A stretch of 49,567 nt of DNA from contig JBDHHZ010000011.1 in NCBI GenBank assembly GCA_039589115.1, forward strand, positions 1 to 49,567, in the 5' to 3' direction. The DNA comes from Gemmatimonadota bacterium (GTDB lineage Bacteria > Gemmatimonadota > Gemmatimonadetes > Palauibacterales > KS3-K002). The position numbers and the translations under genes are program-made. Below the pieces are notes generated by a model that saw only the letters and a list, made by a program, of their open reading frames with translations, searched no databases and was not told the DNA's origin. The stretch's first letter is position 1; every line of letters starts with the position of its first letter. This document shows, piece by piece, positions 114-46,359 of this stretch.

Positions 114-482
114 ATGCTAATCATCGTTGCCCATGGAAGCCGCGATCCGAAGTGGCGGGTTTCGGTCGAGAGCCTGACCGAATCGCTGCAGGCTGATCTC
201 GGCCCGGATAACCTGCGGCTCGCCTACATGGATGGTGGGCCTCCGACGCTCGATGACGTCGTGTCCGAGGCGGTCCAGACGGGAGTGACACGCATGCGAG
301 TGCTGCCGCTGTTCCTCGCCAACGAGGGGCATGTGGATCGCGACATTCGCCCCGTGGTCGATCAGCTGAGCAGCATCCATCGGTCTGTGGAAGTCGAGCT
401 ACTGCCCGCCGTGGGCCAGCACCGGTTGTTCCGGGAGCTGCTTGCCAAGATCGCCGAAGAGGAGTCCGAGTCTAACGCATGA
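114..482 (+). CDS. cbiX: Small CbiX/SirB-type sirohydrochlorin chelatase
   Basis: ORF 54..482. MLIIVAHGSRD and LPLFLANEGHVDRDI resemble the His-containing motifs of class II chelatases (CbiX/SirB). ATG at 114 follows GAGG. The stop overlaps the next start (ATGA at 479-482). A start at 54 cannot be excluded. Confidence 0.7.
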   Translation: MLIIVAHGSRDPKWRVSVESLTESLQADLGPDNLRLAYMDGGPPTLDDVVSEAVQTGVTRMRVLPLFLANEGHVDRDIRPVVDQLSSIHRSVEVELLPAVGQHRLFRELLAKIAEEESESNA

Positions 483-2029: not shown

Positions 2030-2704
2030 TCACCCGGAGAGCGCGCGCCGCACCAGCGCGCCAACGCTGGTGCGCTCGAGCGATCCGTCTTCGTAGAGAG
2101 CGACGGGCCCCTCGTCGGAAAGCAGTTCCGACCGGTCTGCCAGGATCACCGCCTGCCCCACCTGACCCAGACACCAGACGGCCGTGCCCCGGACCTGAGG
2201 GTCAGGATCGTCCAGCGCCGACGCCACTGCCGTGTGGAGTTCCGTGAAGTAGTCTCCCGCAAGAGAGCCGAGTCGTCCTATGGCCCACAGGGCATCGGCC
2301 CTGAAATGGTCCAGGTCTTCCTCGGCCATGTTCGGGATGAGGAAGATGACGATGGGGACGTAGTCGGCAAACAGCTTCGGTTCGTGGCGAACGATCTCCG
2401 CCATCGCCGCCGGGGCATGCCAGCAGATGCCGCCGGACTCCTCACTGATCAGCCAATACAGGCGCCGCAAGTGCTCCCGCACGTAGTCGGGATCGAATTC
2501 GGAGACGCGCCGAGCCGCCACTCCCAACGCCTCGACCGCTCGCCAACCGATCTGCGGGTCCGCATCGTAGGTGAGCGACACGAGGCTTGCCAGGACGCGC
2601 CGCTTCTCGGCGGCCAGCTCGGCGATTCGCTCGAATTGCCCCTCGGCGAGCGCCTCGCGCAGGATTGTCTTGATAGGCACGTGCGCGCCTAGTGCATCTC
2701 CCAC
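2030..2704 (-). CDS. HEAT/armadillo-repeat protein of unknown function, last gene of a DsrMK-like module
   Basis: ORF 2030..2704. Helical-repeat composition with HEAT-like repeats (IGWRAVEALGV, ADALWAIGRLG, DPDPQVRGTAVWCLGQVG). The start overlaps the stop of the upstream HdrD-like gene. No catalytic motif recognised. Confidence 0.5.
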   Translation of the reverse strand: MGDALGAHVPIKTILREALAEGQFERIAELAAEKRRVLASLVSLTYDADPQIGWRAVEALGVAARRVSEFDPDYVREHLRRLYWLISEESGGICWHAPAAMAEIVRHEPKLFADYVPIVIFLIPNMAEEDLDHFRADALWAIGRLGSLAGDYFTELHTAVASALDDPDPQVRGTAVWCLGQVGQAVILADRSELLSDEGPVALYEDGSLERTSVGALVRRALSG

Positions 2705-4299
2705 TTGATGAACGGCTCTTTGACATCCACCATCGCGTTGACGATCAGCTCCACGAGACCGCCGTAGGTGATGTTGCTCTTCTCCAGAACGTCATAGTAC
2801 TGCAGCAGGTCGCGAAGCTGACCCTTGCAGTTGGAGCACGGCGCGCAGAGGTACTTCTTGACCTCCGGTCCCGGCTGGTCAGCGAACGCGTCGAGGATCT
2901 GCTTCATTTTCACTCGGCTGCCGACACTTATGCGCCAGTCCGCGAAGTTGTTGGGCGACATTACGGCGAACCCGCTTCCGCCGCCACAGCAGTAGTTGTC
3001 CACCCCGTGCGGTGTCATCTCCCGGAACTGCGGGCACAAGTACCGCAGGATACGCCGTTGTGGTTCCACGATCCCCAGGTTGCGGACGATGTTGCACGGG
3101 TCGTGTAGAGTCACCGGGAAGTCGTTCTTGGACGGGTCGAACTCGATCTTCCCACTGAATACGATCTCCTCCAGCAGCGGCAGGCAGCTCTCACGGGCCA
3201 CAGCCAAGTCACCCGTAAGGACACGATCCGAGATGGTCATCAAGGCCTTGTGCTGATGCCCGCACTCGCCGGCGACGATCTTGTTCACCTTAAGCTTCTT
3301 GGCCGCCTCGGCGTGCTTGACTGTCACGCGAGCCAGCTGGACGTCATCGTAGAACAGGCCGTAGTTGACACCGTCATAGCCAAGCCCATCCGAGGATAAG
3401 GTCCAATCGATGCCCGCCGCGTTCAGGATGATGGCAAATGCCCCGGGATTCTCGGGCCAGGCCAGAATCTCCCCGGCGTTGTGGATCAGCAGGACGTCCG
3501 CGCCTTCCTTGTCCCACGGGGTCTCCACCTTTATGCCCGTCTCGTCTTCCATGTCCTCGTCGATGAACTCGATGTTGTCCTTCACGACCACGGCGTTCAT
3601 GCCCGTTGACGAGCCCACCTCAAGCTGGAGAACGGTACCCTTCTCGTGCAGCTCCTTGGGAGCCCAACCCAGCTCCTGACTGAACAGCTTCCGCAACTCG
3701 CGACTGATCAGGCCGTTGTCGAGCCCGATGGGACAGGCTTGAGCGCAGCGCCGGCACAGCGTGCAGCGGTAGCAGAGCTCGTACAGCCGAGTGATAGTGG
3801 TCCAGTTGAGCTCGATGTCACCGTGGGTGAACCTGGCGAACAGCTTTCCACCCGGCTTGGCGTACTTGGCGACCAGCCTCCGCAATACCTCGGCGCGGTA
3901 GGTCGGCCGGTAGATCTCCTTGCGGCCGCTCGCCGTGAAGACGGGACATGCGTCGTTACAACTCTGACAGTTCACGCAGTAGTCCAGCGAGAGCAGCAGC
4001 GGCTGCAAGAACGTCCAGTTGTTGTTCTTCTCGAGCAACTTCTTCAGGCCGGCACGGAACTTCTCGACGTATTCCTCTTCCTCGGCTGCGTCCGTCGGCT
4101 TGGGGATACTCAACCCGATGACGCCGTCCAGGTTGCAGACAAGGCGCTCCTTGGTCTCGGGACTGAGCTCCTTCCAGGCCGGCTCGTGCTCAGGGTTATC
4201 GTAGGGAGGTGGGAGGGGCGCGAGGTCCTCGGGTCCCACGGGACACAGCACCTCGTCTCCCCGCTTGCTGATGTCTATCACGCGTAGCTTGGTGCTCAC
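2689..4299 (-). CDS. HdrD/DsrK-like CCG-domain iron-sulfur oxidoreductase (module a)
   Basis: ORF 2689..4371 trimmed to the GTG at 4299 (GAGGAG upstream; GTGA overlap with the stop of the membrane gene). Two 4Fe-4S motifs (CVNCQSCNDACP, CYRCTLCRRCAQACP) are followed by CCG-type Cys-rich motifs (HDPCNIVRN, NYCCGGGSG, CAPCSNC). Confidence 0.8.
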   Translation of the reverse strand: MSTKLRVIDISKRGDEVLCPVGPEDLAPLPPPYDNPEHEPAWKELSPETKERLVCNLDGVIGLSIPKPTDAAEEEEYVEKFRAGLKKLLEKNNNWTFLQPLLLSLDYCVNCQSCNDACPVFTASGRKEIYRPTYRAEVLRRLVAKYAKPGGKLFARFTHGDIELNWTTITRLYELCYRCTLCRRCAQACPIGLDNGLISRELRKLFSQELGWAPKELHEKGTVLQLEVGSSTGMNAVVVKDNIEFIDEDMEDETGIKVETPWDKEGADVLLIHNAGEILAWPENPGAFAIILNAAGIDWTLSSDGLGYDGVNYGLFYDDVQLARVTVKHAEAAKKLKVNKIVAGECGHQHKALMTISDRVLTGDLAVARESCLPLLEEIVFSGKIEFDPSKNDFPVTLHDPCNIVRNLGIVEPQRRILRYLCPQFREMTPHGVDNYCCGGGSGFAVMSPNNFADWRISVGSRVKMKQILDAFADQPGPEVKKYLCAPCSNCKGQLRDLLQYYDVLEKSNITYGGLVELIVNAMVDVKEPFIKWEMH

Positions 4300-5210
4300 G
4301 TCTTCATCTCCTCGGTTGCAACATCCACCCAGTTCTTTCTTCCGTCGGACTTCACGTGGGGCCCTGCCCACGTCACGGGCTGATTCAGGAGCCGGACGGC
4401 CTCCCGCTCCAGCCGCCCGCCCGCAGCCAGCGGCTCATCGTCCCAGCGGACCTGGTGGTACGTGAAGTACTTCGCAACGAAGTGCATCATCCGGCTGAAG
4501 GGCAGATAGGCCAGAAACAGCAGGGCCAGCAGAACATGCACGGCCAGTATGCCAGGAAGCACGACTGAAAAATCAGCGGTCAGCAGAGCTACGGCGAAAC
4601 CCGTTACCTGCCCGGCAAAAGCCTGCGAGGCCGCAAGGGCTAGCGCGCCGCTAGCGAACACGGCTAGCAGGAGGACCAGGTTGAACAGGGCCGCCGGTGT
4701 CGTATAGGCCCGGAGCCGCGGATCGGCGAAACGGCTGCCGAGCAGTCCCAGCGCCCCGATGCCGCCCAGCGCGAAGCCAACTCCGGCGAGCAGCGATACA
4801 GCATCGCGCCAGGCGCCCGAGCCCGCGCTCTCCACTCCGGCCAACTGCAGCCCGCCACCGAGCAGCAGCACGGCAGCGGCCGCTATCAACACGTACATGC
4901 CGATATGGAACGGGAAAGAGAACCACCACAGTCGGCGATTGTGCTCCCACACACTCTTGAGGAACACGATTTCCTGGAACATGAAGAACAACTCGTTGAG
5001 CCGGTCCTTCTCACGCGGCTTCGTCCACCACTCGTACTCCTCGAGGTACGAGCCGCCGTAATGGCTCTTGCCCTTCTCGTGTGGCACCGGGGCGAGCTCC
5101 CAGCGGAGATGCACCGGAAGCCTCGCTATCCTCAAAGTTCTGAGCACGAACGCCACAATGAACACCGCCAACAACGCCCACGACATCACTATCAGTATGG
5201 ATCCGGACAT
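4296..5210 (-). CDS. NarI/DsrM-like integral membrane cytochrome b subunit (module a)
   Basis: ORF 4296..5210. Multiple hydrophobic helices and a C-terminal YLPFSRMMHF motif, as in NarI/DsrM/HdrE-type quinol-interacting subunits. The start directly abuts the stop of the MerR-like gene (TAAATG). Confidence 0.7.
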   Translation of the reverse strand: MSGSILIVMSWALLAVFIVAFVLRTLRIARLPVHLRWELAPVPHEKGKSHYGGSYLEEYEWWTKPREKDRLNELFFMFQEIVFLKSVWEHNRRLWWFSFPFHIGMYVLIAAAAVLLLGGGLQLAGVESAGSGAWRDAVSLLAGVGFALGGIGALGLLGSRFADPRLRAYTTPAALFNLVLLLAVFASGALALAASQAFAGQVTGFAVALLTADFSVVLPGILAVHVLLALLFLAYLPFSRMMHFVAKYFTYHQVRWDDEPLAAGGRLEREAVRLLNQPVTWAGPHVKSDGRKNWVDVATEEMKT

Positions 5211-5732
5211 TTAAGCCTCTTCCTCCGTCGAGTATCTCTTCCGCTGCATGAGCTCCTGGATGGCTGCACCCGCATCCTGCACGTCGTTCTCGTCATGCAG
5301 CAGCTGTTTGATGTCTTCGGTGCACAACGAACCGAATCGGTACACGGCGCAACCCCGGCACTCGTTCCCCTGCGGGGCGCAGTCGAGGCCCTTGATCATC
5401 CAGCACGGCCGCGTGCTGTCCTCATAGGCGGGACAGCTCCTGCGGGTCTCCGCCGTGCACGGGAGTAGATCCCAGCACGGCAGCAGCGCCTGCACCCTGT
5501 GAATTCCCTCTATGTTGAGTCCTAGGTCCTGGATCAGATGCTGGATGTTACGGACGCGGCTGATGTCCTCATGCGAGAACAGGCGGTGGCCCGAGGGAGT
5601 GCGGTGGGCGATGATGAGGCCCTCGTTCTCGTATTTCCGCACGGCGGAAACGGAAAGCCCCACCCGTTGTGCCAGAACGCCGATGGAGATTAGCGGGTCT
5701 TCGATTTCGTGATGCGCTGGTGCGTCGGGCAC
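5211..5732 (-). CDS. MerR-family HTH regulator with C-terminal 8-Cys domain
   Basis: The N-terminus ISIGVLAQRVGLSVSAVRKYENEGLI..HR..SGHRLF is a MerR-type HTH. The C-terminal stretch PCWDLLPCTAETRRSCPAYEDSTRPCWMIKGLDCAPQGNECRGCAVYRFGSLC holds 8 Cys in about 55 aa. Confidence 0.75.
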   Translation of the reverse strand: MPDAPAHHEIEDPLISIGVLAQRVGLSVSAVRKYENEGLIIAHRTPSGHRLFSHEDISRVRNIQHLIQDLGLNIEGIHRVQALLPCWDLLPCTAETRRSCPAYEDSTRPCWMIKGLDCAPQGNECRGCAVYRFGSLCTEDIKQLLHDENDVQDAGAAIQELMQRKRYSTEEEA

Positions 5733-5932: not shown

Positions 5933-6325
5933 TCAGCCGATCAGCTCTCTGACCTTGCGCACCAACTGCTCAGCGTCGACGGGCTTGCTGATGTACCCCT
6001 CGGGTGGGGGGACCTGTCGGCGGCTGGAGATGAACCTTTCGAACTCTTCGGAGATGCCTGTGATGATGATGACGGGAACGCTCTTGAGTCGTTCGTCTTC
6101 CTTCAGCTTCCGATAGACGGCCACGCCGGACTTCTCGGGCATGGAGATGTCGAGTGCGACGAGGTCGGGCACATCCTGCTCGAGCGCCGCGATGGCTTCG
6201 ACGCCATCATTGGCGGTCGTGGTCATGAAGCCGTTGTCCTGCAACACGGTGGTGAGATACTCCCGAGCATCGGGATCATCATCCACGACCAGAACGGTCT
6301 TGGCGTCGTCAGTCATTATCCGCAT
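5933..6325 (-). CDS. Stand-alone response-regulator receiver protein
   Basis: ORF 5933..6466 trimmed to MRIMTDDAKTVLVVDDD (ATG at 6325; ATG at 6316 also possible). REC motifs present: VVDDD, LVALDISMP, IIITG, SKPV. The start overlaps the 3' end of the upstream kinase gene. Confidence 0.85.
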   Translation of the reverse strand: MRIMTDDAKTVLVVDDDPDAREYLTTVLQDNGFMTTTANDGVEAIAALEQDVPDLVALDISMPEKSGVAVYRKLKEDERLKSVPVIIITGISEEFERFISSRRQVPPPEGYISKPVDAEQLVRKVRELIG

Positions 6326-7769
6326 CCATTTCAGACGTGTTGGATTCCTCCGACTCCTGCGTCGGAGGCCGCTTGCGGGGCAGCTTAACGATGAACCGCG
6401 TTCCGGCACCGGAGTCCGACTCCAGTTCGATGGTGCCGCCGTGAGAACGCGCGATGCGATCGGCAACGAAGAGCCCCAGCCCGGTGCCCTCCATTCCCTT
6501 TGAGGAGAAGAACATCGTGAATGCCTTCTCCCGGGTTTCCTGGTCCATCCCGATGCCGTTGTCCTCGACTTCGTACTGGACGACGTCGGGGAGTCCCTGA
6601 AGCCGCACGGCTACGATGTGTTCGGGCTTCTTCCCGTCCAGCCGGCAGGCGTCCAGGGAGTTCTCGACCAGGTTCACAAGTAGCGAACGGACCGCCTGCG
6701 CATCACCCTCGAAGTCGCCGGCGGCCGTGTCGAGCTCGGTGGTCAGCTGTATCCCCTGATCTTTGGCCCGCGACTCCATGAGACCGCAAACATCCTGGGC
6801 GACTTCCATGGCGGACAGGCGCTCCCACATGGGGACGCGATCCTTCGCATAGTAGAGGATGTCCGAGACCATGCTCTGGATGCGGGCGACGTTTCGATGG
6901 ACCGTCGCCCAGCCCTTGTCGATGCGCGTCCGATCCTCTTTAGCGAACCCGGAATCGACAAGATACATGCCGCCGGCCAGCCCGTTGAGCAGACCTTTCA
7001 GGCCGTGCGACACCGAACCGACCAACAGGCCCAGCGACGTGAGGCGGTCCTCCAGCTCGCGGACCTGGGTGATGTTGGCGCTCATCTCCATCACGCCGGT
7101 GATTCGACCCTGCCGATCTCGGATGGGAGCGGCCGTCACGAGCACGTTCTGGTGCCGGCCATCGAGCGACGTGACCACCTCTTCCCGAGTATGCGGCTCG
7201 CCGTCCTCGAAGGTCTCCTGGACCGGGCAGGGGACACACGGTTCTGAGCGATGCTTGTAGATCTCGAAGCACTTGCGGCCGAGGCAGTCACCGAAGTCTT
7301 CCTGGAAGGCGCGGTTGGCCTCCACGATGTTCAAGTCGAGGTCTTGAATCGAGATGTAACAGGGCACCACGTCGAACAGGAGGTGGTAGCGACGTTGGCT
7401 CCGCCGCAGTTGACGCTCCAGGTCCCTCATGTCGGTGATGTCGGTGGACATCTCCATGACGGCCACGACCTTGCCGCTCTCGTCGCGGATCGGCGTGGCG
7501 TCTACCAGCACCGAGATCTCCCGCCCGTCCAGGCTCGTGACTCGCTCTTTGCTGCGGTGGCTCTGCCCATCGTGGAACGCTTCGGCGACCGGACAAGTCT
7601 CACACCGCTCGGAGCGCTGCTTGTAGACCTGATAGCAGAACCGGCCGTCGATATCGCCGAAATCCGTCCGGAATCGCGCGTTCGCATCGATGATCCGGAA
7701 GTCGCGGTCCTGCACCGTGAGGTAGCACGGCAGCGTGTCGAAATAGACTTGGTAGTCGTTATTCATCAC
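6309..7769 (-). CDS. Cytoplasmic PAS-PAS sensor histidine kinase, each PAS with 4 conserved Cys
   Basis: No TM segment seen. Two PAS-like repeats carry the same Cys pattern (LPCYL..RFCYQVYKQRSERCETCP and VPCYI..RKCFEIYKHRSEPCVPCP). H-box SVSHGLKG, N-box LVENSLDAC, G-boxes DNGIGMD and GTGLGL. Confidence 0.85.
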   Translation of the reverse strand: MMNNDYQVYFDTLPCYLTVQDRDFRIIDANARFRTDFGDIDGRFCYQVYKQRSERCETCPVAEAFHDGQSHRSKERVTSLDGREISVLVDATPIRDESGKVVAVMEMSTDITDMRDLERQLRRSQRRYHLLFDVVPCYISIQDLDLNIVEANRAFQEDFGDCLGRKCFEIYKHRSEPCVPCPVQETFEDGEPHTREEVVTSLDGRHQNVLVTAAPIRDRQGRITGVMEMSANITQVRELEDRLTSLGLLVGSVSHGLKGLLNGLAGGMYLVDSGFAKEDRTRIDKGWATVHRNVARIQSMVSDILYYAKDRVPMWERLSAMEVAQDVCGLMESRAKDQGIQLTTELDTAAGDFEGDAQAVRSLLVNLVENSLDACRLDGKKPEHIVAVRLQGLPDVVQYEVEDNGIGMDQETREKAFTMFFSSKGMEGTGLGLFVADRIARSHGGTIELESDSGAGTRFIVKLPRKRPPTQESEESNTSEMDADND

Positions 7770-7829
7770 GAATCCCGAGCAGATGTTGTCCCGCGCGCTA
7801 CCCCATTCTTCACTACCTCACCAAGAACT

Positions 7830-9605
7830 TCAAGGCGTGCTCTCATCTCCGGCTGCTGACTCGTCGTGGGCCAGCTCCAGGATCCTGCGAACCGTGCTCA
7901 CGAGGGCCTCTTCGGTAACCGGCTTGTCCATATAGCCCTCGGGCTTCCTGACGGAGCGGTCATAGATCAGCTTGCGCAGCTCGGGTCTACCGGTGATCAC
8001 GCAGACCTTCAAGCTCTCAAGCTCCGGATCCTTGCGCAGAATCTCGTACACCTCGCCGACGTTTCTGCCGGGCATTTCGAGGTCGAGCGTCAACAGGTCT
8101 GGCTTCTCGCTACAGGCCATCGCCAGGGCCTCGTCGCCATTAGTGGCCCGCAGCACCGTGGCACCGTTATCCTCGAAGACCGTCGCCAGGTACTCGAGCT
8201 GATCGGGCTCGTCGTCGGCTACTAGCAATGTACGGCCGGCCAGCGGCAGCGCCTCGGCAACCACCTCTACCACCTCCTCGACTGGAATCGCCACCTTCGG
8301 CTCGATAACGAGGGCGTTCGCCACCAGGTTGACCAGCTGCGAAACCTCGATACCCAACTCGTAGTGCCTGATAACGTCAGTCAGGCCGTCGACACAGTTG
8401 TGACACGACGTGACGACGATCTCGGCGCCGGTCTCCTTCAGCTGGTTCGCCTTGATGACGCCCGACTTGAGCCGCCGCCCCGTGTACTCCGACATCGACA
8501 TAGCACCACCACCGCCCGTGCAACAGTAGTTCTCGGCGCGGTTCGGATACATCTCGCGAAAGTCGCTACACACCAACTGGAGCAGCTCGCGGGGCTCCTC
8601 GAACAGGCCGCAACTGCGGCCCATGTTGCAGGAGTCGTGATAAGTGACGGGCCTGGAGTTGCGGCTCTTGTCCACCTTGATCCGCCCTTCCTTGATGTAG
8701 CGGAGCATGGTGAAGATAGAACTCTCCATTACGAAAGGCACGTCGTACTTGGCCCAGTTGGGGCCCTCGCAGCGAGTCGATCGGTAGCCGTGGCCGCACT
8801 CCGAAATGACGAGCTGCTTTCCGCGAAGCTCGACCACCTTCTCGTACAGCCGCTGGGCGACGGAGCCGCCCAGATCGTCGTCGCCGGAGAACAGCCCGAA
8901 GTTGGTCATGTCCCAGCCCTCGCTGGCCATGGTCCACTTCTCTCCGGCCATGTGGAAGATCTTGGCCGCGTCCGCGATGGTGCGCGGGTCGTACTTCACC
9001 TCGCGCGGGTTGATGGAGTAGACCACATCGCAGTCGAACTGGTCGATCGGAATATCGGCCTCCGGGTCGTCCAGCTCGTCCTGCATCTCCTCCGCCATCC
9101 ACTCGAGCGTGTCTAGGTACTCCTCTTTGAGCACGCCCATCTGGTTGCCTATCTCCCACTGGTCCTTGCTGACGACGGCCACGCCTTCGGGCATGACCCC
9201 GACCGAGACAAGGAGACCCCGCGCCATCCGGTTGAACGTGGCCAAATCGACGCCCATCGGGCAGTTCAGGGAGCAACGCCGGCAATTGGTGCACTTGCCG
9301 AACACGGTATCCTTCAATTCCTCCAATTCCTCATCGGTCCAGACGCTGCCGGCCTTCACCCACCAGGGGAACACCCGACCCGTCCAATCGAAATGGCGCT
9401 TGAACAGCTTGCGGACCAGGTCGCCTTTGTATGCGGGGGCATAGGTCGGGTCGCCGGGATTGGCCAGGACGTAGTGACAGGACTCGGTACACAGGCCGCA
9501 GTGCACACAGGCCAGCAGCGAGCCCGCCATCTGCCGGTTCAGCTTCTGGCCCATCCGCTCGAGGACCTTCTCAGCCTTCAGGGATCTAGTATTCGCGTTG
9601 CTCAT
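7830..9605 (-). CDS. HdrD/DsrK-like CCG-domain iron-sulfur protein fused to a C-terminal receiver (REC) domain (module b)
   Basis: The N-terminal part has 2x4Fe-4S motifs (CVHCGLCTESCH, CTNCRRCSLNCPMG) and CCG motifs (YHDSCNMGRSCG, NYCCTGGGGA, TSCHNC). The last ~125 aa (about 7833-8210) form a complete REC: LLVADDEPD, LLTLDLEMPG, VCVITG, MDKPV. Confidence 0.8.
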   Translation of the reverse strand: MSNANTRSLKAEKVLERMGQKLNRQMAGSLLACVHCGLCTESCHYVLANPGDPTYAPAYKGDLVRKLFKRHFDWTGRVFPWWVKAGSVWTDEELEELKDTVFGKCTNCRRCSLNCPMGVDLATFNRMARGLLVSVGVMPEGVAVVSKDQWEIGNQMGVLKEEYLDTLEWMAEEMQDELDDPEADIPIDQFDCDVVYSINPREVKYDPRTIADAAKIFHMAGEKWTMASEGWDMTNFGLFSGDDDLGGSVAQRLYEKVVELRGKQLVISECGHGYRSTRCEGPNWAKYDVPFVMESSIFTMLRYIKEGRIKVDKSRNSRPVTYHDSCNMGRSCGLFEEPRELLQLVCSDFREMYPNRAENYCCTGGGGAMSMSEYTGRRLKSGVIKANQLKETGAEIVVTSCHNCVDGLTDVIRHYELGIEVSQLVNLVANALVIEPKVAIPVEEVVEVVAEALPLAGRTLLVADDEPDQLEYLATVFEDNGATVLRATNGDEALAMACSEKPDLLTLDLEMPGRNVGEVYEILRKDPELESLKVCVITGRPELRKLIYDRSVRKPEGYMDKPVTEEALVSTVRRILELAHDESAAGDESTP

Positions 9606-9644
9606 CGGGTCGTCTTCCCTTTCCGTCGGCGTGTGCTCGCCAAC

Positions 9645-10313
9645 CTATCCACGCCGGACCGGGTATACTCCCCGGTAACCCATGGTTTTGCCCAGGTAAT
9701 AGCGCGTGAAGGGGTAGTAGAGGTAGTGGGATATCTTGCTGAACGGCACATAGACCAGGAAGAAGGCCGTCAGGATGAAATAGCCCAGCAGGTGCCACTC
9801 GCCGCCGGCGATCTGGTTCGGCACCGCCAGCACCGCGAAGAAGAACCACGTCGTCAGCAGCACCAGCGAGAAGTAGTCGTCCGGCGAGCTGATCGCACGC
9901 ATATACGGACTGCCGACCCGCCGGATGATTCTGATCACCCCGACCAGGAAGGCCGCGCCGATCACGATCTGCAGGATCAGCACGACGGCTCGACTCTCGA
10001 GCAGGCCCGGCCAGTACGGGATGACGAACGATAGGGCGATGGCGGCGGTCACCCCGATGTGGAACGCCGCGAACTGGACATAGATCAAGTAGTGCCGTCG
10101 TGTGCTCTCCATCGCCCAGGGCATGGCGATATTCGCCCAAGAATACAGGATGCCCTTGGCCGGGGTGGTGTTCGGCGGACCGGTCGCCGCCTGGCGCTCG
10201 CCGCCGGCCTTGAAGCCGAAGAGCCATAGGATGCGGATCGTATAGACCAGGGCCATGAATCCCAGGGCGACCTCTTGCAGCGTATGCTCGGAGAAGTGTA
10301 GCAGCTCGCTCAT
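9645..10313 (-). CDS. NarI/DsrM-like integral membrane cytochrome b subunit (module b)
   Basis: Hydrophobic multi-helix protein ending in VYVPFSKISHYLYYPF, comparable to the YFPFSKLAHM of the canonical DsrM in this window. The start overlaps the macro-domain stop (ATGA). Confidence 0.7.
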   Translation of the reverse strand: MSELLHFSEHTLQEVALGFMALVYTIRILWLFGFKAGGERQAATGPPNTTPAKGILYSWANIAMPWAMESTRRHYLIYVQFAAFHIGVTAAIALSFVIPYWPGLLESRAVVLILQIVIGAAFLVGVIRIIRRVGSPYMRAISSPDDYFSLVLLTTWFFFAVLAVPNQIAGGEWHLLGYFILTAFFLVYVPFSKISHYLYYPFTRYYLGKTMGYRGVYPVRRG

Positions 10314-10852
10314 GGCGTATTCTCTATTTGGGCCTTGAAAGCGTCGTATTGGCTAGTGTCCAACACGCAGATGACGACTTCCTTGATTGCGGTCTCACCC
10401 TCCAAGTGACCCCTGATCACTTCGAGCATCACCCGGGCACAAAGACCCGGCGCGATCCCGTAATACCCCGCACCCATAGCCGGAAAGGCGATCCGCCCGA
10501 CAGCTATCTCCTCGGCGCGTTTCAGGGAGTTGAGAACCGTCGTTCGCAGCTTGCCTTGCGTATCCTCTTCCTGAAACCGGGGGCCGACTGCGTGGATGAT
10601 GTGCTGGGCTTTGAGGTTCCCTGCCGCGGAGACCACAGCCTCGCCGTTTGCGACCGGGCCCAGCTGCTCCAGTTCCTTCTGGACCGTGGGCCCGCCTCGC
10701 ACGGAGATCGCCCCTCCGAATCCCGTACCGAGAGCCAGATCGGGCTGGGCGTAGAACACGAAGGCGTCAACGTCGAGGTCTGTGATGTCGTCTTTGATGA
10801 GGCGTAAGACGCTCTGATTTATCTGTAAGCCCTCCTCAACTGCCTTGGTCAC
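10310..10852 (-). CDS. Macro-domain protein (ADP-ribose binding / de-ADP-ribosylating family)
   Basis: ORF 10310..10891 trimmed to the GTG at 10852, which follows a strong SD (GGGAGGG, 4-nt spacer). Macro-like motifs: LIKDDITDLDVDAFV, GFGGAI, IIHAVGPRF, IAFPAMGAGYYG. Confidence 0.7.
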   Translation of the reverse strand: MTKAVEEGLQINQSVLRLIKDDITDLDVDAFVFYAQPDLALGTGFGGAISVRGGPTVQKELEQLGPVANGEAVVSAAGNLKAQHIIHAVGPRFQEEDTQGKLRTTVLNSLKRAEEIAVGRIAFPAMGAGYYGIAPGLCARVMLEVIRGHLEGETAIKEVVICVLDTSQYDAFKAQIENTP

Positions 10853-10968
10853 TGCGCCCTCCCTTTTGCTTTGCGGAGTCCAACCTCGCACCGTATGCCT
10901 TCGAGACCCTCCGACTTCCCCGAATCACCTTCGAAACTCTCCGACCGGCGTTCTCCGGGTTCCACATC

Positions 10969-11616
10969 TCATCCATAGAACGGCAAGCCCGCCACCCGGC
11001 ACGCCCCCCGCCGATACCCGGCCGGAAATAGCTCTCGCAGCTCATCGAGGCTCAGGTCGTTGGCGGAGCAAGCCTCGTAGACTGTCGGGAGCATTCGGTT
11101 GGCGACGTAGTAGTCGCGCAAGTAACGCACGATCTGCAGGTGCCTCTCCGTCGTCACGACCGGCGGTTCCCTCTGCGACATGGCCAGCTCGACGAAGTCT
11201 TCATCCCACTCCTCGAAGTTCTCGAGGAATCCCAATTCGTCCAGTCCATAGCGCGGCTTTGCGGGAGGCGCAGTCTCGTACGTGAGCCAGTAGTTCGTCT
11301 CCCACATGAACTTGTAGTTGATGCCGGCGACCTTGCAGGCGCCCCGATGGTATCCGGTAGGAAACAGCGAGCGCAGCTCCGAGAGCCGCATGTGATTGTC
11401 CGCGCACGCCATGACGAGCACCGGCACGGTGTTCTCGTCGAGGAACTTGTGCCGCAGATAATTGATGAGCTGCCAGTGCCGTTCCGTGAGCCCCGACGCA
11501 ACCCCCACCAGCTTCGCCATTCCTTCGGCGAAGTCCTCTTCCCACTGCTCCGGCGGGTCCAAGAACCCGTAGGCGTCCAGCTGGTAGGTCTTGCCCTTGA
11601 ACGCTACTGAACTCAT
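10969..11616 (-). CDS. Tandem (two-domain) DsrC/TusE-like protein lacking the C-terminal CysA
   Basis: Two DsrC-family repeats in one 215-aa ORF. Repeat 1 ends ...LFPTGYHRGACKVAGINYKF and repeat 2 ends ...LFPAGYRRGACRVAGLPFYG-stop. Both keep the GAC(K/R)VAG position (CysB) but lack the terminal PKPTGCV arm of the canonical DsrC at 27754..28071. Confidence 0.8.
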   Translation of the reverse strand: MSSVAFKGKTYQLDAYGFLDPPEQWEEDFAEGMAKLVGVASGLTERHWQLINYLRHKFLDENTVPVLVMACADNHMRLSELRSLFPTGYHRGACKVAGINYKFMWETNYWLTYETAPPAKPRYGLDELGFLENFEEWDEDFVELAMSQREPPVVTTERHLQIVRYLRDYYVANRMLPTVYEACSANDLSLDELRELFPAGYRRGACRVAGLPFYG

Positions 11617-11692: not shown

Positions 11693-12484
11693 CTATGCAG
11701 CGTCGCCCGCCGCTCTGCGACTGGCGCCCGCAACGCTATCGACTAGCTGTTCGATCTGCTCTGCCGTCAGAGGGGCACTCAGGGTGGGCGCGGAGAGTTG
11801 CCCTACGACCTCTTCGTCCACCGCACGACGTGCCACAAAGACCTTCACCCCGGGAATTCGGTCATCCCGGATGATGGACTCCAACAGGCTGCCGTCGCTC
11901 ACCTCAGGCAGCTCGCTATCCAGCACCACCACGGCGGGGCGAAACGTCCCGATCAGCGTGGAGCTTTCATACCCAGATCGGGCGAACTGCAGGGAGACCC
12001 TGTCCGCGTCCGTGTCTTTCTCGAGCCGGCGGGTCAATGCCTCGTCCCGAGTGATCACCAAAACGGTCATCGCCATGCCGTGACAGGCCCTATAAAACGG
12101 GCAGTCCAAGCAATCAGTCTTGCAGAAGTCATGCCTGTGCCCGGCCTCCCTCCCCAGTTCGGCCAGCCTGTAGCAGTACTGTGCCCGGGCCTGGTAGACC
12201 AGGCAATTCCGGCAGCTTTCGGGTGGAGCGCCCGGCTGCCCGAAGTACTCCCAACAGCGCTGTGGGACTCCATCCCCGTTCCCTCGATCGGCGGTCGCGC
12301 CAACAGGATCCTCGCCGTTCGAGTCGCAAAGACCCAGGGCAGTACAGGCCTCTCGAGAGACCCGGTAGTGTCCACCGGCGGTGCGGGTCGCCGGCAGCCT
12401 GCCCTTCTTGATCCACTTCAGCACGGCGTCTGGTGTGACGCCGCAGAGCTTGGCCACCTCGCCTGTACTGAGCATAGAACCCAT
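11693..12484 (-). CDS. Excisionase/MerR-superfamily HTH regulator with central 8-Cys domain and C-terminal receiver-like domain (paralogue 1)
   Basis: ORF 11693..12553 trimmed to ATG 12484 (MGSMLSTGEVAKLCGVTPDAVLKWIKKGRL..GGHYRV); the trim is supported by the putative promoter at 12544-12572. Cys block RCWEYF..SCRNCLVYQ..YCY..FCKTDCLDCPFYRAC. Receiver-like tail VLVITRDE..VVVLDSE. Confidence 0.7.
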   Translation of the reverse strand: MGSMLSTGEVAKLCGVTPDAVLKWIKKGRLPATRTAGGHYRVSREACTALGLCDSNGEDPVGATADRGNGDGVPQRCWEYFGQPGAPPESCRNCLVYQARAQYCYRLAELGREAGHRHDFCKTDCLDCPFYRACHGMAMTVLVITRDEALTRRLEKDTDADRVSLQFARSGYESSTLIGTFRPAVVVLDSELPEVSDGSLLESIIRDDRIPGVKVFVARRAVDEEVVGQLSAPTLSAPLTAEQIEQLVDSVAGASRRAAGDAA

Positions 12485-12543: not shown

Positions 12544-12572
12544 ATTCTACCAAAATTTGGCGGTTCTGTCAA
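12544..12572 (-). promoter_or_regulatory. Putative sigma70-type promoter for regulator paralogue 1 (TTGACA-N17-TAGAAT)
   Basis: The minus strand reads TTGACA (12572-12567), a 17-nt spacer, then TAGAAT (12549-12544). This sits about 60 bp upstream of the ATG at 12484. The -35 is embedded in the 9-bp repeat TTCTTGACA, which recurs inverted at 12511-12519. Confidence 0.4.
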
Positions 12573-12697: not shown

Positions 12698-12726
12698 TTG
12701 ACTCCTGAGAGCCGCGTATGTATTTT
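12698..12726 (+). promoter_or_regulatory. Putative sigma70-type promoter for regulator paralogue 2 (TTGACT-N17-TATTTT)
   Basis: TTGACT at 12698-12703, a 17-nt spacer, TATTTT at 12721-12726, about 55 bp upstream of the ATG at 12781. Preceded by TTTTCTTG (12686-12693), a motif shared with the divergent promoter. Confidence 0.35.
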
Positions 12727-12780
12727 ATGCAATCAGGGTGGTCGGGAAATGCGGTACCCCATAAAAGCCATACCTGCGCC

Positions 12781-13590
12781 ATGAAGCAGCAGAAAGACGG
12801 TACCTGGCTAACCACCGGGCAAGCTGCCAGGCTTTGCTCGGTCACTTCCGATACTGTCCTCAAGTGGATAAAGAAGGGGTCGCTCAAGGCCGTGCGCACG
12901 GCGGGCGGCCACTATCGCATCAGACGCCAGGAGCTCGCACCCCTCCTCACGTTAGGCCGGACCTCGCGGATTTTCCCGGACAGGACGAGCAGCGCGCCGC
13001 AGCAGTTGCGGTGTTGGGAGTACTTCAGCCGCGGAGGCGCCATCAGGGAAGAATGCGAGGCGTGCGCGGTCTACCGCGCGCGGGCTTCGCGGTGCTTCCG
13101 GATGGCGACGATGGGACCTGACATCGGCCACGCTCGTCAATTCTGCCAGACATCCTGCGACGATTGTGTCTACTTCCAGCGGCTGAGCGGACAGCCGACA
13201 AAGGTGCTCGTTGTCACGTCGGACTCTGATCTCGTTCAGCGGCTGAAGAGTCATGAGTCAGAGGGGATGGAGTTGCGCTTCGCGCGGAACGCCTACGAAG
13301 CCTCGGCTGTGGTGCAGGCTTTCCTGCCGGGCTTCGCGGTGGTCGACCAGGACGCGTTTCCGGGCGGTGACTACGGACTGCTGGAGAACCTGGCGAACGA
13401 CCCCCGCCTTCCGGGTCTGAAGATCATCGTAGCGGTGCAGCGCGGTGAGGATCAGCGACTGGGCAACTTACAGGATGGACATTTCGTATCTCGAGTGATT
13501 GAAAAGCCGTTCGGTTCGGAGGAGATCGCGGCCGTGATCGACGGTTTTCCGGTGGGATCGGTTGAGATGGAGAGATTGGGCAACGTCTGA
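12781..13590 (+). CDS. Excisionase/MerR-superfamily HTH regulator with central 7-Cys domain and C-terminal receiver-like domain (paralogue 2)
   Basis: ORF 12718..13590 trimmed to ATG 12781 (MKQQKDGTWLTTGQAARLCSVTSDTVLKWIKKGSL..GGHYRI). Cys block RCWEYF..ECEACAVYR..RCF..FCQTSCDDCVYFQ. Receiver-like tail VLVVTSDSD..FAVVDQD..EKPF. Confidence 0.7.
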   Translation: MKQQKDGTWLTTGQAARLCSVTSDTVLKWIKKGSLKAVRTAGGHYRIRRQELAPLLTLGRTSRIFPDRTSSAPQQLRCWEYFSRGGAIREECEACAVYRARASRCFRMATMGPDIGHARQFCQTSCDDCVYFQRLSGQPTKVLVVTSDSDLVQRLKSHESEGMELRFARNAYEASAVVQAFLPGFAVVDQDAFPGGDYGLLENLANDPRLPGLKIIVAVQRGEDQRLGNLQDGHFVSRVIEKPFGSEEIAAVIDGFPVGSVEMERLGNV

Positions 13591-13604
13591 CAACGGGGGT
13601 AACA

Positions 13605-13922
13605 GTGAGCCCAGTGAATCGGGAAGTTTTAGAAGCCAGTAGCGATGAGGACGGGTTCCTCAAGGCTATGGCGAACTGGGATCGAGCGACGGCCGAGACC
13701 CTCGCCGAGCTGCACAATATCGGTGAGCTCACGGACGAGCACTGGATGGTGATCGAGTTCGTGCAAGAGTATTACGCGACCTACGGCACAGGGCCGCCGG
13801 TGGTGAAGGTGCACAAGGAGACCGGGCTGACGTCGGAAGAGATCTGCCAGCTGTTCCCTTGCGGCATGGTGAAGGGGGCATACCGGCTAGCCGGACTCCC
13901 ACGCCCGCCCGGCTGCGCCTGA
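13605..13922 (+). CDS. DsrC/TusE-like protein with CysA only (CysB replaced by Tyr, extra Cys upstream)
   Basis: 105-aa DsrC-family ORF with a GTG start. The C-terminus LFPCGMVKGAYRLAGLPRPPGCA compares with the canonical LFPSGPAKGACKVAGLPKPTGCV at 27754..28071. Confidence 0.8.
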   Translation: MSPVNREVLEASSDEDGFLKAMANWDRATAETLAELHNIGELTDEHWMVIEFVQEYYATYGTGPPVVKVHKETGLTSEEICQLFPCGMVKGAYRLAGLPRPPGCA

Positions 13923-13961
13923 GCGCCGAGTGGTAGTGACGCCACTCTAGAAAGGAACGAC

Positions 13962-14681
13962 ATGGACTTCGTGAGTTTGATGTTGGGCGGAATTCTGCCC
14001 TACGTAGCGGTCGCGGTGTTCATCGTGGCCATGGCCTACCGCATCTATACGTGGAAGAGACTCGCGGCGCCCTCGATGACGCTGTTCCCGGCGCCGGCCG
14101 ATGAGAAAGCCAACAGGCGAAACGTGGTCAAAGAGGCCCTGCTGTTCCGGAGCTTGTTCGGAGGCGACCGGCTGCTGTGGGGATTCGCTTGGATGTTCCA
14201 CGCGGTGTTGGCTTTGATCGTTCTGGGGCACTTTCGCGTCTTCACGAACGTGGACGGGACCCTGATGACGATGGGGATGAGCGAAGGGGCAATCCAGGCC
14301 ATGTCCGGCGGCGCGGGTGGAGCAGCCGGTGTGGTGATACTGGTCGCGACGATTCTGTTGTTAGTTCGGAGGTTGGCGCTGCCGCGCGTCCGCGAGGTCA
14401 CGGGTTCGGCCGACTATCTCGCCCTGCTGCTGATCGCGGCCATCATCGTGACCGGCAACATGATGCGGTTCGGGGCCGAGCACTTCGACCTAACCCTGAC
14501 GCGGCAGTACTTCGCCAGTCTGGCGACCTTCGGGGGTGTCATGGATGAGGCCGCCTTGCAGAACAACGTGTTCGTAGTCCACATGAGCCTGGCGTTCCTG
14601 CTGATCATGATCATCCCATTCAGCAAGATCCTCCATTTCGGCGGGATCTTCTTCACGCATCAGCTCATCCGGAAGCATTGA
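13962..14681 (+). CDS. NarI/DsrM-like integral membrane cytochrome b subunit (module c)
   Basis: Hydrophobic multi-helix protein with a C-terminal IIPFSKILHFGGIFF motif as in DsrM/NarI-type subunits. Directly followed by an HdrD-like gene. Confidence 0.7.
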   Translation: MDFVSLMLGGILPYVAVAVFIVAMAYRIYTWKRLAAPSMTLFPAPADEKANRRNVVKEALLFRSLFGGDRLLWGFAWMFHAVLALIVLGHFRVFTNVDGTLMTMGMSEGAIQAMSGGAGGAAGVVILVATILLLVRRLALPRVREVTGSADYLALLLIAAIIVTGNMMRFGAEHFDLTLTRQYFASLATFGGVMDEAALQNNVFVVHMSLAFLLIMIIPFSKILHFGGIFFTHQLIRKH

Positions 14682-14694
14682 GGCGGAGGCGAGG

Positions 14695-16026
14695 ATGTCC
14701 GAAAACAATGTGAAAGAGCAAGTTGTCGACTCTATCAATGCCATCAAAGATGGCCCCCGTGCGATGCGGATGTATATGGAGATGTGCGTCAAGTGCGGGA
14801 CGTGCGCATCGGTCTGCCCGGTGTACTACGGCAAGAGCGAGAAGCGCTACAACCCAGCGGAGCGCACCGACCTGATCCGCCGCATCTACCGCAAGTACAA
14901 CACGCTCAGTGGGAAGTTGTTCGGGAGGTTCGCCGGAGCGGAGGACTTCGACCCGGCGGACATCGATGACTGGCAGACGATCTTCTACGAGTGCACCGGT
15001 TGCCGCCGCTGCGCCATGTTCTGCCCTTTCGGTATCGATCACTCGGTCATCACGCGGAAGGGCCGCGCGATCCTGGACAAGGTCGGTATGACGCCTGAGA
15101 CGATGGCGAGAGTGGTTCAGGTCTCGCTAGAGACGGGGAACACGGACGGCGCCGGGGAGGCGGCGTTCCGGGCAGCGATCGACTTCCTCGAAGAGGAGAT
15201 GAACGACGAGCACGGCATCGACATCAAGATTCCGATCGACGCGAAAGGCGCGGAGTACTTCTATGTCCCACCCTCCGGCGATGTGCTTGTCAACCCGGAG
15301 GCCACGATGGGCGTCGCCAAGGTGTTCCACGCCCTTGGGATGGCGGACCGCTGGACCATGAGCTCCAAGTGCTTCGACGGGGCCAACTACGGGCTGTTCA
15401 CCGGTAACGACGGCGACATGAAGGCCGATAACAAGCTCTATGTGGAGGAAGCCAAGGAGCTAGGCACCAAGGTCATGTTGATGGGCGAGTGCGGCCACGC
15501 GTATCGGATCATGAAGATGATGATGGAGAAGACCGGCTGGTGGGGTGAGCTGCCCTTCGAGATCGTCAACTGCATGGAATGGACCGCCGATCACATCAGG
15601 AACGGCCAGCTCGAGTTCGACAAGTCCCAGAACCAACAGCCCGTCACCTACCACGACCCGTGCAACTTCGGACGTTCTTGTGGCATCACCGAGGAGCCGC
15701 GGGTCATTCTAGAGGCCTCTTGCGCCGACTTCCGAGAGATGCATCCCAACCGCGGCGAGAACTGGTGCTGCGGCGGCGGCGGTGGGCTGTCGGCGATGGA
15801 CGATATCATAGAGTTCCGGATGGAGATCTCCGGTACGAAGAAGCTGGAGCAGATCCGCGAGACCGGGGCCACCTATGTGTCCACCGCCTGCTCCAACTGC
15901 AAGCGCCAGCTGACGCAGTTGCTCGAGCATCACGAGGAGCAGATCGAGGTCGGGGGCGTTCACGACATGCTCTCCCGCTCGATTCTCATCAACGGGAAGG
16001 CCGCGGAAAGGGAGGAGTACGTGTAG
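14695..16026 (+). CDS. HdrD/DsrK-like CCG-domain iron-sulfur oxidoreductase (module c)
   Basis: 2x4Fe-4S motifs (CVKCGTCASVCP, CTGCRRCAMFCPFG) plus CCG motifs (YHDPCNFGRSCG, NWCCGGGGG, TACSNCKRQL). Confidence 0.8.
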   Translation: MSENNVKEQVVDSINAIKDGPRAMRMYMEMCVKCGTCASVCPVYYGKSEKRYNPAERTDLIRRIYRKYNTLSGKLFGRFAGAEDFDPADIDDWQTIFYECTGCRRCAMFCPFGIDHSVITRKGRAILDKVGMTPETMARVVQVSLETGNTDGAGEAAFRAAIDFLEEEMNDEHGIDIKIPIDAKGAEYFYVPPSGDVLVNPEATMGVAKVFHALGMADRWTMSSKCFDGANYGLFTGNDGDMKADNKLYVEEAKELGTKVMLMGECGHAYRIMKMMMEKTGWWGELPFEIVNCMEWTADHIRNGQLEFDKSQNQQPVTYHDPCNFGRSCGITEEPRVILEASCADFREMHPNRGENWCCGGGGGLSAMDDIIEFRMEISGTKKLEQIRETGATYVSTACSNCKRQLTQLLEHHEEQIEVGGVHDMLSRSILINGKAAEREEYV

Positions 16027-19484: not shown

Positions 19485-19739
19485 TTAGCCGCCGCCTTCG
19501 GCAGCCCCCTCATCTGGTGGAACTTCGATGAAGCTGCCGCCGAAGTACGTGTAGACGCACCTTCCGGAATCCATCAAGGTGCGAATAGCGGCCTTGCAAG
19601 CCTTCTTGTCGACTTCGCCTTCACCGAACTTCTGGATCATCGCCTTGGTCAGATCGCCGGCCTTGAACTTCTTCTTGCCCTGGTACTCGGCGACCAGATC
19701 GTACATGGCGTCCGCGATTTGTTCAGTCGTGACGGCCAT
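19485..19739 (-). CDS. dsrD: DsrD-like small protein
   Basis: 84-aa ORF starting 10 nt after the dsrB stop, the canonical dsrD position. KKKF..GDLTK...VDKK...L.DSG..VYTYFGGS resembles the DsrD winged-helix pattern recalled from Desulfovibrio. Confidence 0.7.
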   Translation of the reverse strand: MAVTTEQIADAMYDLVAEYQGKKKFKAGDLTKAMIQKFGEGEVDKKACKAAIRTLMDSGRCVYTYFGGSFIEVPPDEGAAEGGG

Positions 19740-22098: not shown

Positions 22099-22144
22099 TA
22101 GCTCCTTTCGGACGGGCATGATGCCGCTTCCGTTGCCCTTCTGG

Positions 22145-23305: not shown

Positions 23306-23335
23306 TACGGTCTCCCGTTTCCGTGCGGGACAGCT

Positions 23336-24128: not shown

Positions 24129-24131
24129 CGG

Positions 24132-27728: not shown

Positions 27729-27753
27729 AGTCAGTTCTCCCGTGCCGCCGGAA

Positions 27754-31145: not shown

Positions 31146-31159
31146 CCTCACCACGCTCC

Positions 31160-43906: not shown

Positions 43907-43909
43907 GCC

Positions 43910-46319: not shown

Positions 46320-46359
46320 GGAGTGGGAATAGCGGGATTCTGCTGAGTCAATATCGGTC

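Follow-up and report, generated by a model that had tools for sequence, protein, structure and literature searches.

A conserved gene cassette in which an HmcF/TmcB-like Fe-S protein carries a response-regulator receiver and is encoded beside a cysteine-rich PAS histidine kinase

A stretch of 49,567 nucleotides from a Gemmatimonadota bacterium (contig JBDHHZ010000011.1 of assembly GCA_039589115.1, positions 1 to 49,567; referred to as the window) was analyzed with respect to a cluster of seven co-directional minus-strand genes, which extends from position 12484 down to 5933 and joins a membrane protein and an Fe-S protein with the components of a two-component system. The genes were established from the listing of open reading frames (ORFs) together with Pfam and NCBIfam profile searches. 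From upstream to downstream, the following features are present (HTH, helix-turn-helix; TM, transmembrane):

12544..12572, minus strand: candidate promoter, sigma-70-like, of the HTH gene or of the operon (TTGACA-17-TAGAAT with TG, 11/12, consensus match only)
11693..12484, minus strand: MerR/excisionase-type HTH regulator, Cys-rich, with a degenerate receiver-like C-terminus (Pfam HTH_17/MerR)
10969..11616, minus strand: tandem DsrC-like protein, two DsrC domains in one chain of 215 amino acids (Pfam E 2e-37)
10310..10852, minus strand: Macro-domain protein of a distinct subfamily (Pfam Macro PF01661, E 4e-22)
9645..10313, minus strand: five-TM membrane subunit, 222 amino acids, distantly HmcE/TmcC/NarI-like (NCBIfam HmcE/TmcC, E 2e-11)
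7830..9605, minus strand: K::REC, Fe-S protein of the HmcF/TmcB/DsrK superfamily with a C-terminal receiver, 591 amino acids (Pfam Fer4_8/Fer4_17, CCG and Response_reg)
6309..7769, minus strand: soluble PAS-PAS histidine kinase, 486 amino acids (Pfam two PAS_4 and HATPase_c, E 6e-23)
5933..6325, minus strand: stand-alone receiver, 130 amino acids (Pfam Response_reg, E 8e-24)

The tandem DsrC-like gene follows the HTH gene after 76 nucleotides (nt) and is itself followed by the Macro gene after 77 nt (GTG start at 10891) or 116 nt (GTG start at 10852, which has a GGGAGGG Shine-Dalgarno-like motif and agrees with the orthologues). Macro and membrane genes overlap by 4 nt (ATGA), gaps of 39 and 60 nt separate K::REC from the membrane gene and from the kinase gene, respectively, and the stop of the latter is overlapped by the stand-alone receiver gene for 17 nt; another 200 nt lie between this gene and a downstream MerR-M3-K3 module. 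These measurements agree with an earlier note on this DNA, which had listed six minus-strand ORFs, a same-strand HTH regulator 76 bp upstream and the two overlaps; its domain calls were also right in the profile searches, apart from the family placement of the membrane/Fe-S (M/K) pair, which is revised below. Five hydrophobic segments were found in the membrane protein and none in the other six cluster proteins, for which no signal or TM segment was detected either, and Pfam returned no cytochrome c domain in the cluster. Inside the cluster the minus strand shows no terminator-like site, and the only two short palindromes are both located within the HTH gene. A riboswitch or other RNA element was rejected, as the whole window gave zero Rfam matches.

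K::REC contains two CX2CX2CX3C motifs (C33/36/39/43 and C105/108/111/115), one CCG motif (C326...C361C362...C401xxC404) and an SECGH motif at residues 268-272 (C270), and with these it has all elements of the DsrK/HmcF/TmcB/HdrD superfamily (two CX2CX2CX3C, one CCG and the [T/G]ECGH cysteine). The motif definition, CXnCCXnCXXC plus [T/G]ECGH, was taken from the literature, where disulfide reduction by DsrK, HmcF and TmcB is said probably to require the T/GECGH cysteine (PMC10861901). The ferredoxin-type motifs, SECGH and the CCG cysteines are all invariant in 28 homologues and, with the full catalytic cysteine set retained, the K part looks catalytic. NCBIfam scores decreased from HmcF (332 bits) over TmcB (311 bits) to DsrK (250 bits), each below its equivalog cut-off (NF045711, 750 bits; NF045724, 735 bits; NF045796, 400 bits). 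Because of this ranking K::REC appears to be HmcF/TmcB-like rather than DsrK-like, and the DsrMK-like label which the M/K pair had been given before is replaced by a closer relationship to HmcEF/TmcCB. A variable linker of about 25 amino acids leads to the receiver (residues 458-580), in which the signature D464, D465, D508, T538 and K561 is invariant and the functional residues of PF00072 are complete. A pseudo-receiver was rejected on account of these five invariant residues; the domain looks functional, with Asp508 as predicted phospho-acceptor. An AlphaFold2 (AF2) model of K::REC was used solely for coarse Foldseek matching, and the top matches of this low-confidence model were EtfD (9ojn), LutA, HdrB and receivers.

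The fusion is widespread. At least 120 database clusters of fused K::REC were found at 78% identity or more, and the receiver is present in all of them; at the 50%-cluster level one more full-length fused representative (P0121, 51% identity) was detected, and unfused relatives reach at most 43%. The scan of species-representative genomes confirmed 587 of 600 candidate stretches as relatives and yielded at least 80 full-length fused loci with 72-91% identity to K::REC; an identity this high across phyla speaks for an enzyme and a set of partners under constraint. The closest homologues derive from Gemmatimonadota metagenome-assembled genomes (MAGs). In public annotation the fused proteins appear only as "response regulator" or "Fe-S oxidoreductase/CheY-like".

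For a census of the gene neighborhood, 82 non-redundant loci were searched with the proteins of the window, and only loci with enough flank were counted. The membrane protein adjoins K::REC in 76/76 loci, the PAS kinase is present in 69/69 and the Macro gene in 68/70. The stand-alone receiver was found in 49 of 65 loci, being mostly missing in Ignavibacteria and Zixibacteria, and the tandem DsrC-like gene in only 8 of 61. Carriers belong to Gemmatimonadota, Planctomycetota, Acidobacteriota, Zixibacteria, Ignavibacteria, Calditrichota, deltaproteobacterial MAGs and others, at least eight phyla in total, and a locus with the cassette in Elusimicrobiota was found separately. A diverged outlier (L087, 51% identical) retains the membrane protein, K::REC and a kinase whose single PAS domain keeps the four-cysteine (Cys4) motif described below. 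Based on these counts, the conserved core consists of the Macro protein, the five-TM membrane protein, K::REC and the PAS-PAS kinase, and the DsrC-like gene is outside of it; chance juxtaposition or independent genes were rejected by the same census. Recurrence in other genomes had been named in advance as a check on the idea of an M/K-type redox pair hard-wired to a two-component system, and both the fusion and the gene order are indeed conserved across at least eight phyla. The Macro gene, formerly treated as a passenger, is instead a core member, and the stand-alone receiver, formerly counted among the components, is frequent and at the same time dispensable in some lineages. Gene order, domain content, the conservation of catalytic and phospho-acceptor residues, the conservation across phyla and the neighborhood statistics are direct observations.

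The membrane protein gave no Pfam match (PF02665 included), no match to the NCBIfam DsrM model and a weak one to HmcE/TmcC (44 bits against cut-offs of 275 and 240). With hhalign it was aligned to the M3, M2 and DsrM families at 96, 88 and 83% probability, in the C-terminal half only, which includes PFSKxxH. Membership of the DsrC, DsrM and DsrK families, on which the first interpretation of the locus depended, is confirmed for the tandem protein; K::REC and the anchor have HmcF/TmcB and HmcE/TmcC as their best matches, with scores below the family cut-offs. In NarI-type anchors, four conserved histidines ligate two hemes b. With positions taken from NarI, H85 and H196 of the membrane protein are invariant (79/79) and H10 occurs in 71/79 sequences; H74 (8/79, mostly Lys) and H174 (36/79) are not conserved. 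MacroD-type ADP-ribosyl hydrolases are characterized by NAAN and GGG-V-D catalytic motifs. The Macro protein has the fold without these motifs: a conserved FYAQ replaces NAAN, the Asp/His positions read G/S and every NCBIfam equivalog stays below its cut-off. In the PDB, PARP14 macro domains and TTHA0132 come closest to it.

Each PAS domain of the kinase carries the motif C-x29-C-x10-C-x2-C. C45, C56, C59, C137, C167, C178, C181 and H255 are invariant in 72/72 homologues and C15 is found in 56/72. No Pfam HisKA match and no TM segment were detected in the kinase; a suitable histidine and the HATPase_c domain are both present, and H255 is the predicted phospho-acceptor. A PDB sequence search matched the kinase core only and gave no solved homologue for the Cys4-PAS region. 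The stand-alone receiver, with the family consensus DD...D...T...K, is 43% identical to the receiver of K::REC (BLASTP E 4e-26), and both score best against the NCBIfam DVU0259/DivK family.

The window as a whole looks like a sulfate-reduction (reductive dissimilatory sulfur) island of the Gemmatimonadota type, with the following genes:

19485-19739: dsrD
19750-20826: dsrB
20890-22119: dsrA
22145-27155: dsrM, dsrK, dsrO and dsrP (dsrMK(J)OP)
27754-28071: canonical dsrC, product ending ACKVAGLPKPTGCV

Moreover, sat, qmoABC, aprAB, one DsrL-like and one DsrN-like gene are present. Clusters of DsrAB/Sat/AprAB/QmoABC are known from marine Gemmatimonadota (PMC11316326). In many of the related loci dsrAB, dsrC, dsrN, dsrL or DsrMK-paralogue genes are located within 10 kb of the cassette. 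Six loci from Ignavibacteria and Zixibacteria (L029, L035, L048, L067, L073, L083) encode DsrA/DsrB with 71-79% identity to those of the window and K::REC with 73-77%; these parallel identities are consistent with a common, possibly horizontal, history of the cassette and the dsr genes.

We tentatively favor, with a confidence that stops somewhat short of probable, a kinase-gated, quinone-linked disulfide oxidoreductase whose catalytic subunit is itself the response regulator of the kinase. The Cys4-PAS sites of the kinase would read a cytoplasmic redox, oxygen or metal-cluster signal, whereupon the kinase would phosphorylate Asp508 in the receiver tethered to K, and also the paralogous stand-alone receiver in those loci that have one. 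This would switch the electron flow through the membrane/K pair, with the menaquinone pool at one end and, at the other, a thiol/disulfide acceptor in the cytoplasm that belongs to the DsrC family or is similar to it. Since the cassette lies inside a reductive dsr/apr/sat/qmo island, it may be the gate of one among several parallel routes leading to sulfite reduction or away from it in this organism. As the fused receiver is the only one that is always present and the core contains no DNA-binding response regulator, the enzyme would be the one universal phosphorylation target; together with the full catalytic set this makes control of the enzyme by the kinase the most economical reading. The invariant linkage, the functional-looking receiver, the cysteine motif and H255 of the kinase, the sulfur context and a precedent in hmc operons (see below) also suggest it. 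The direction of signaling from kinase to K, the quinone coupling, the acceptor, the ligands of the Cys4 sites and of the Macro protein and the physiological role are what we infer here.

Several points weigh against this proposal. Of the four heme histidines of the NarI type, no more than two are invariant, and di-heme b binding and quinol coupling are therefore not assured. The receiver is placed C-terminally on a variable, probably flexible linker, so that it is not evident how it would act allosterically on the active site, and the AF2 model of K::REC is poor (predicted local distance difference test 60, predicted TM score 0.49). Some members of the CCG proteins work in non-thiol reactions, and the top fold matches are EtfD and LutA. 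The proposal does not account for the Macro protein. In many loci no sulfur genes occur in the 10-kb flanks (e.g., L001, CP070666; L002; L014), among them one in a complete Gemmatimonadota genome, and the link between cassette and dsr genes may thus be facultative. Finally, all genomes behind the cassette are MAGs.

Two further modules with regulator genes and M/K-type pairs of their own lie next to the cluster:

12718..16026, plus strand: companion module, divergent, with HTH-Cys regulator, DsrC variant, M2 and K2 (Pfam/NCBIfam)
12718-13590, plus strand: HTH-Cys regulator paralogue, divergent, 40% identical to the regulator at 11693-12484
13605-13922, plus strand: DsrC variant, CysA kept, Tyr at the CysB position
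13962-14681, plus strand: DsrM-like M2 (NCBIfam DsrM, 100 bits)
14695-16026, plus strand: DsrK-like K2 (NCBIfam DsrK, 369 bits; cut-off 400)
5211-5732, minus strand: Cys-rich MerR regulator
4296-5210, minus strand: NarI-family M3, 304 amino acids
2689-4371, minus strand: CCG protein K3, 560 amino acids

In about 24 of 83 loci, from different phyla, the MerR-M3-K3 module (2689..5732) recurs no more than 10 kb away from the cassette. Between 2689 and 27155 the window holds four M/K-type pairs, whose K subunits (K::REC, K2, K3 and DsrK) are 29-36% identical pairwise and all carry [G/S]ECGH and CC[G/T]G. In the window, the MerR-M3-K3 genes are followed by genes encoding a HEAT-repeat protein (2030-2704, minus strand) and a CobA/HemD fusion of the siroheme branch (479-2002, plus strand).

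The regulators bear on the second way to read the cassette. Phosphorylation target and redox sensor were already set side by side in the earlier note, and they are the two leading hypotheses, which are not mutually exclusive. As a sensor feeding a phosphorelay, which we consider unlikely though deserving of serious attention, the membrane/K pair would be the input: it would equilibrate with the quinone pool and oxidize or reduce the PAS cysteines or cluster of the kinase, the fused receiver would dock the kinase at the membrane complex or serve as a phosphate sink, and the real output would pass from the stand-alone receiver to the neighboring HTH/Cys-rich regulators. The cysteines of ArcB, which are under quinone control, offer an analogy. 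Kinase cysteines invariant in both PAS domains fit such a scheme, as do a K subunit of the disulfide-reductase type, a soluble kinase with no other evident input and a flexible linker suited to docking. Cys-rich HTH or MerR genes are located near the cassette in 29 of 48 loci, and the HTH type of the window has a receiver-like C-terminus: residues 162-251 of the regulator upstream of the tandem gene gave a weak PmrA-receiver match (NCBIfam) and the C-terminus of its paralogue matches the receiver of K::REC at E 8e-5. On inspection, however, both of these domains have other residues in place of the acid pocket and Ala in place of Thr, and one of them lacks Lys as well. Furthermore, 16/65 loci have no stand-alone receiver and 19/48 no such regulator nearby, so the output path of a sensor would not be universal; the Cys4 arrangement in the PAS domains resembles a metal or Fe-S site more than a dithiol switch, and a sensor positioned upstream has no need of a receiver.

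The earlier note had proposed a dedicated quinol:DsrC-like oxidoreductase; menaquinol would be the donor and the tandem protein the specific substrate of the receiver-fused K. For this proposal, which we now regard as improbable, speaks the position of the tandem gene, which directly precedes the cassette on the same strand in the window and likewise in five close Gemmatimonadota and three Pirellulaceae loci; in one locus (L085) it directly follows K::REC, and C71/C94 and C183/C206 could form intradomain disulfides. The protein is inside the DsrC/TusE/RspA family, matching in two stretches (PF04358, 128 bits versus 24.9; TIGR03342, 104 bits versus 53.5). Each half has a cysteine at the CysB position and one further cysteine, and lacks the C-terminal arm with CysA. 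C206 aligns with CysB (Cys103) of Archaeoglobus fulgidus DsrC (1sau), and nine residues later the chain ends ...GACRVAGLPFYG. Within this family of at least 120 clusters the four cysteines are near-invariant (118-120 of 120 homologues), and no homologue (0/120) has a cysteine in the last eight residues, CysA being absent throughout. A canonical DsrC was therefore rejected. DsrMK reduces the CysA-CysB trisulfide of DsrC (PMC10861901), and a protein without CysA cannot form a trisulfide of this DsrMK-substrate type. A regulatory role is considered probable for DsrC-like proteins that lack CysA (PMC9371685). The annotation of the 215-residue tandem family as "TusE" or "tRNA 2-thiouridine synthesizing protein E" is almost certainly wrong.

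The distribution of the tandem gene points in the same direction. The DsrC-M2-K2 module is conserved beside the cassette in seven loci (L004, L005, L007, L012, L013, L021, L023), and with L084, L085 and L086 the tandem gene co-occurs with it in 10/10 assessable loci. Two of these (L084 and L086) have the tandem gene and the module with no REC cassette nearby, and in L085 the two modules are interleaved, with kinase and receiver following M2-K2 and the tandem gene placed directly after K::REC. Without CysA, present in 8/61 cassette loci and always accompanied by the DsrC-M2-K2 module, the tandem protein thus appears not to be the defining substrate of the cassette. It is encoded where the two related modules adjoin, and to count it with the M2K2 module, or with both, seems the better assignment. 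In the window and in each of the loci L004, L005, L007, L012, L013, L021, L023, L025 and L084-L086, the DsrC variant is found directly upstream of the DsrM-like/DsrK-like pair, and it has a conserved C-terminus, LFPCG..[KR]GAYRLAGLPRPxGC[AL], with Tyr at the CysB position and a conserved Cys eight residues upstream. An intermolecular thiol pair between this CysA-keeping variant and the CysB-only tandem protein is a possibility.

Least probable, in our estimate, is that the cassette is no sulfur enzyme at all and represents a general CCG-type module for quinone-linked electron transfer (EtfD-, LutA- or GlpC-like) with a substrate unrelated to DsrC, in which the Macro protein may provide a tie to an ADP-ribose- or NAD-derived ligand and the co-location with dsr genes is merely frequent: the top fold matches EtfD and LutA, the core position of the Macro gene and the many loci without a sulfur gene within 10 kb would suit it, but SECGH is common specifically to DsrK, HmcF and TmcB, these proteins of sulfate respiration are also the best profile matches, the cassette repeatedly adjoins dsr genes and DsrMK paralogues across phyla, and the identity of K across phyla (72-77%) parallels that of DsrAB in the same loci (71-79%).

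Among known systems, the Desulfovibrio complexes Hmc and Tmc come closest to the kinase-gated oxidoreductase proposed here. HmcEF/TmcCB are the best profile matches of both cassette subunits, and common to all are one CCG motif, the [T/G/S]ECGH cysteine and an Fe-S subunit attached on the cytoplasmic side to a small membrane anchor. In D. vulgaris, hmc is followed by rrf1/rrf2, and tmc is preceded by the kinase, receiver and Usp genes DVU0258-0261. In D. hydrothermalis, genes for UspA and a CheY-like receiver follow hmcF and are co-regulated with hmc (PMC4162548). The cytoplasmic partners of Hmc/Tmc-type modules are still unresolved (PMC4215793). Both cassette subunits differ in scoring far below the equivalog cut-offs (332 versus 750 and 44 versus 275 bits). 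The cassette lacks a periplasmic cytochrome c (HmcA/TmcA) and HmcB/C/D-like subunits, and its receiver is fused to the catalytic subunit, whereas that of Hmc is encoded nearby. A Macro protein stands in place of the Usp protein, a dedicated Cys4-PAS kinase is part of the cassette, and the carriers are Gemmatimonadota, Planctomycetota, Acidobacteriota and other phyla, not Desulfovibrionales.

With DsrMK and DsrMKJOP the cassette shares the superfamily, the cofactor motifs, the logic of a membrane anchor with a cytoplasmic CCG protein and the location in a dsr island. In contrast, K::REC is only 30% identical to the DsrK of this genome and 36% to K2, its DsrK score of 250 bits stays below the cut-off of 400, the anchor matches neither the DsrM model nor PF02665, a genuine dsrC and dsrMK(J)OP are encoded elsewhere in the window, and canonical DsrK has no receiver. 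The tandem protein resembles RspA-type proteins in having DsrC folds without CysA, and such proteins are considered probably regulatory (PMC9371685, PMC8477390); it differs by the fusion of two DsrC domains within 215 amino acids, by the four near-invariant cysteines and by constituting a family of its own.

On the signaling side, CheV, CheB and PleD combine receivers with C-terminal placement or enzymatic output, and ArcB and NreB are redox-sensing kinases. With the former the cassette has in common a receiver that controls, or is tethered to, a function other than DNA binding, and with the latter a PAS-domain kinase with what may be cysteine- or Fe-S-based redox sensing. The kinase of the cassette is soluble, unlike ArcB, and its C-x29-C-x10-C-x2-C spacing differs from the C-x2-C-x11-C-x2-C of NreB, in which four cysteines of a PAS domain bind an Fe-S cluster. 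We know of no respiratory Fe-S/CCG oxidoreductase that acts as the output of a response regulator. Literature searches returned no paper describing the cassette or the tandem DsrC-like family, in agreement with the earlier statement that no characterized system of this composition is known; the novelty of the cassette is qualified by the adjacent, co-regulated CheY-like gene of the hmc operon as a partial precedent (PMC4162548). New are the fusion of the receiver to the catalytic subunit, the dedicated Cys4-PAS kinase, the Macro subunit, the lack of periplasmic cytochromes and the phyletic range. The cassette is built from familiar parts and should be of interest to specialists in sulfur metabolism and signaling.

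The remaining part of the window offers some observations in their own right. Between dsrC and dsrM lies a gene for an RsbRD_N-domain protein (27186-27815, minus strand); the longest ORF for it runs into the 3' end of dsrC, and the real start is therefore probably located further downstream. Similarly, the longest QmoC-like and QmoB-like ORFs (29889-33409, minus strand) overlap by about 200 nt (31160-31361), which suggests that the called QmoC start is too far upstream. Beside aprAB, a 735-residue ORF (38778-40985, minus strand) combines a ferrochelatase with the N-terminal domain of a glutamyl-tRNA reductase, an unusual fusion within the tetrapyrrole pathway. A TauE/SafE-type sulfite exporter gene followed by two tandem Cytidylate_kin2 genes is located at 42026-44557 (minus strand). 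An unrelated second two-component pair at 45393-48120 (plus strand) consists of a double-receiver protein (308 amino acids) and a dCache_1-HisKA-HATPase_c kinase.

The regulation of dissimilatory sulfur metabolism in non-classical sulfate and sulfite reducers (Gemmatimonadota, Acidobacteriota, Planctomycetota, Zixibacteria and Ignavibacteria) is a gap in knowledge which the cassette could help to close, and with kinase, receiver and enzyme in one operon it is a defined, highly conserved and experimentally tractable unit. It could also be used as a genomic marker for this style of regulation in metagenomes. If the enzyme is the output, a respiratory Fe-S oxidoreductase would join the list of response-regulator effector domains, which would also explain the CheY-like genes kept beside hmc and tmc operons. 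A wider view, which we consider possible while leaning against it, is that of a two-component system with a universal non-transcriptional output, exerting fast (seconds) phospho-control over the electron flow between quinone and a DsrC-type thiol pool across dsr-bearing lineages in at least eight phyla, with the Macro subunit adding an ADP-ribose-like nucleotide input. If true, the cassette would represent a previously unrecognized layer of post-translational control of dissimilatory sulfur respiration, spread over horizontally connected lineages of at least eight phyla.

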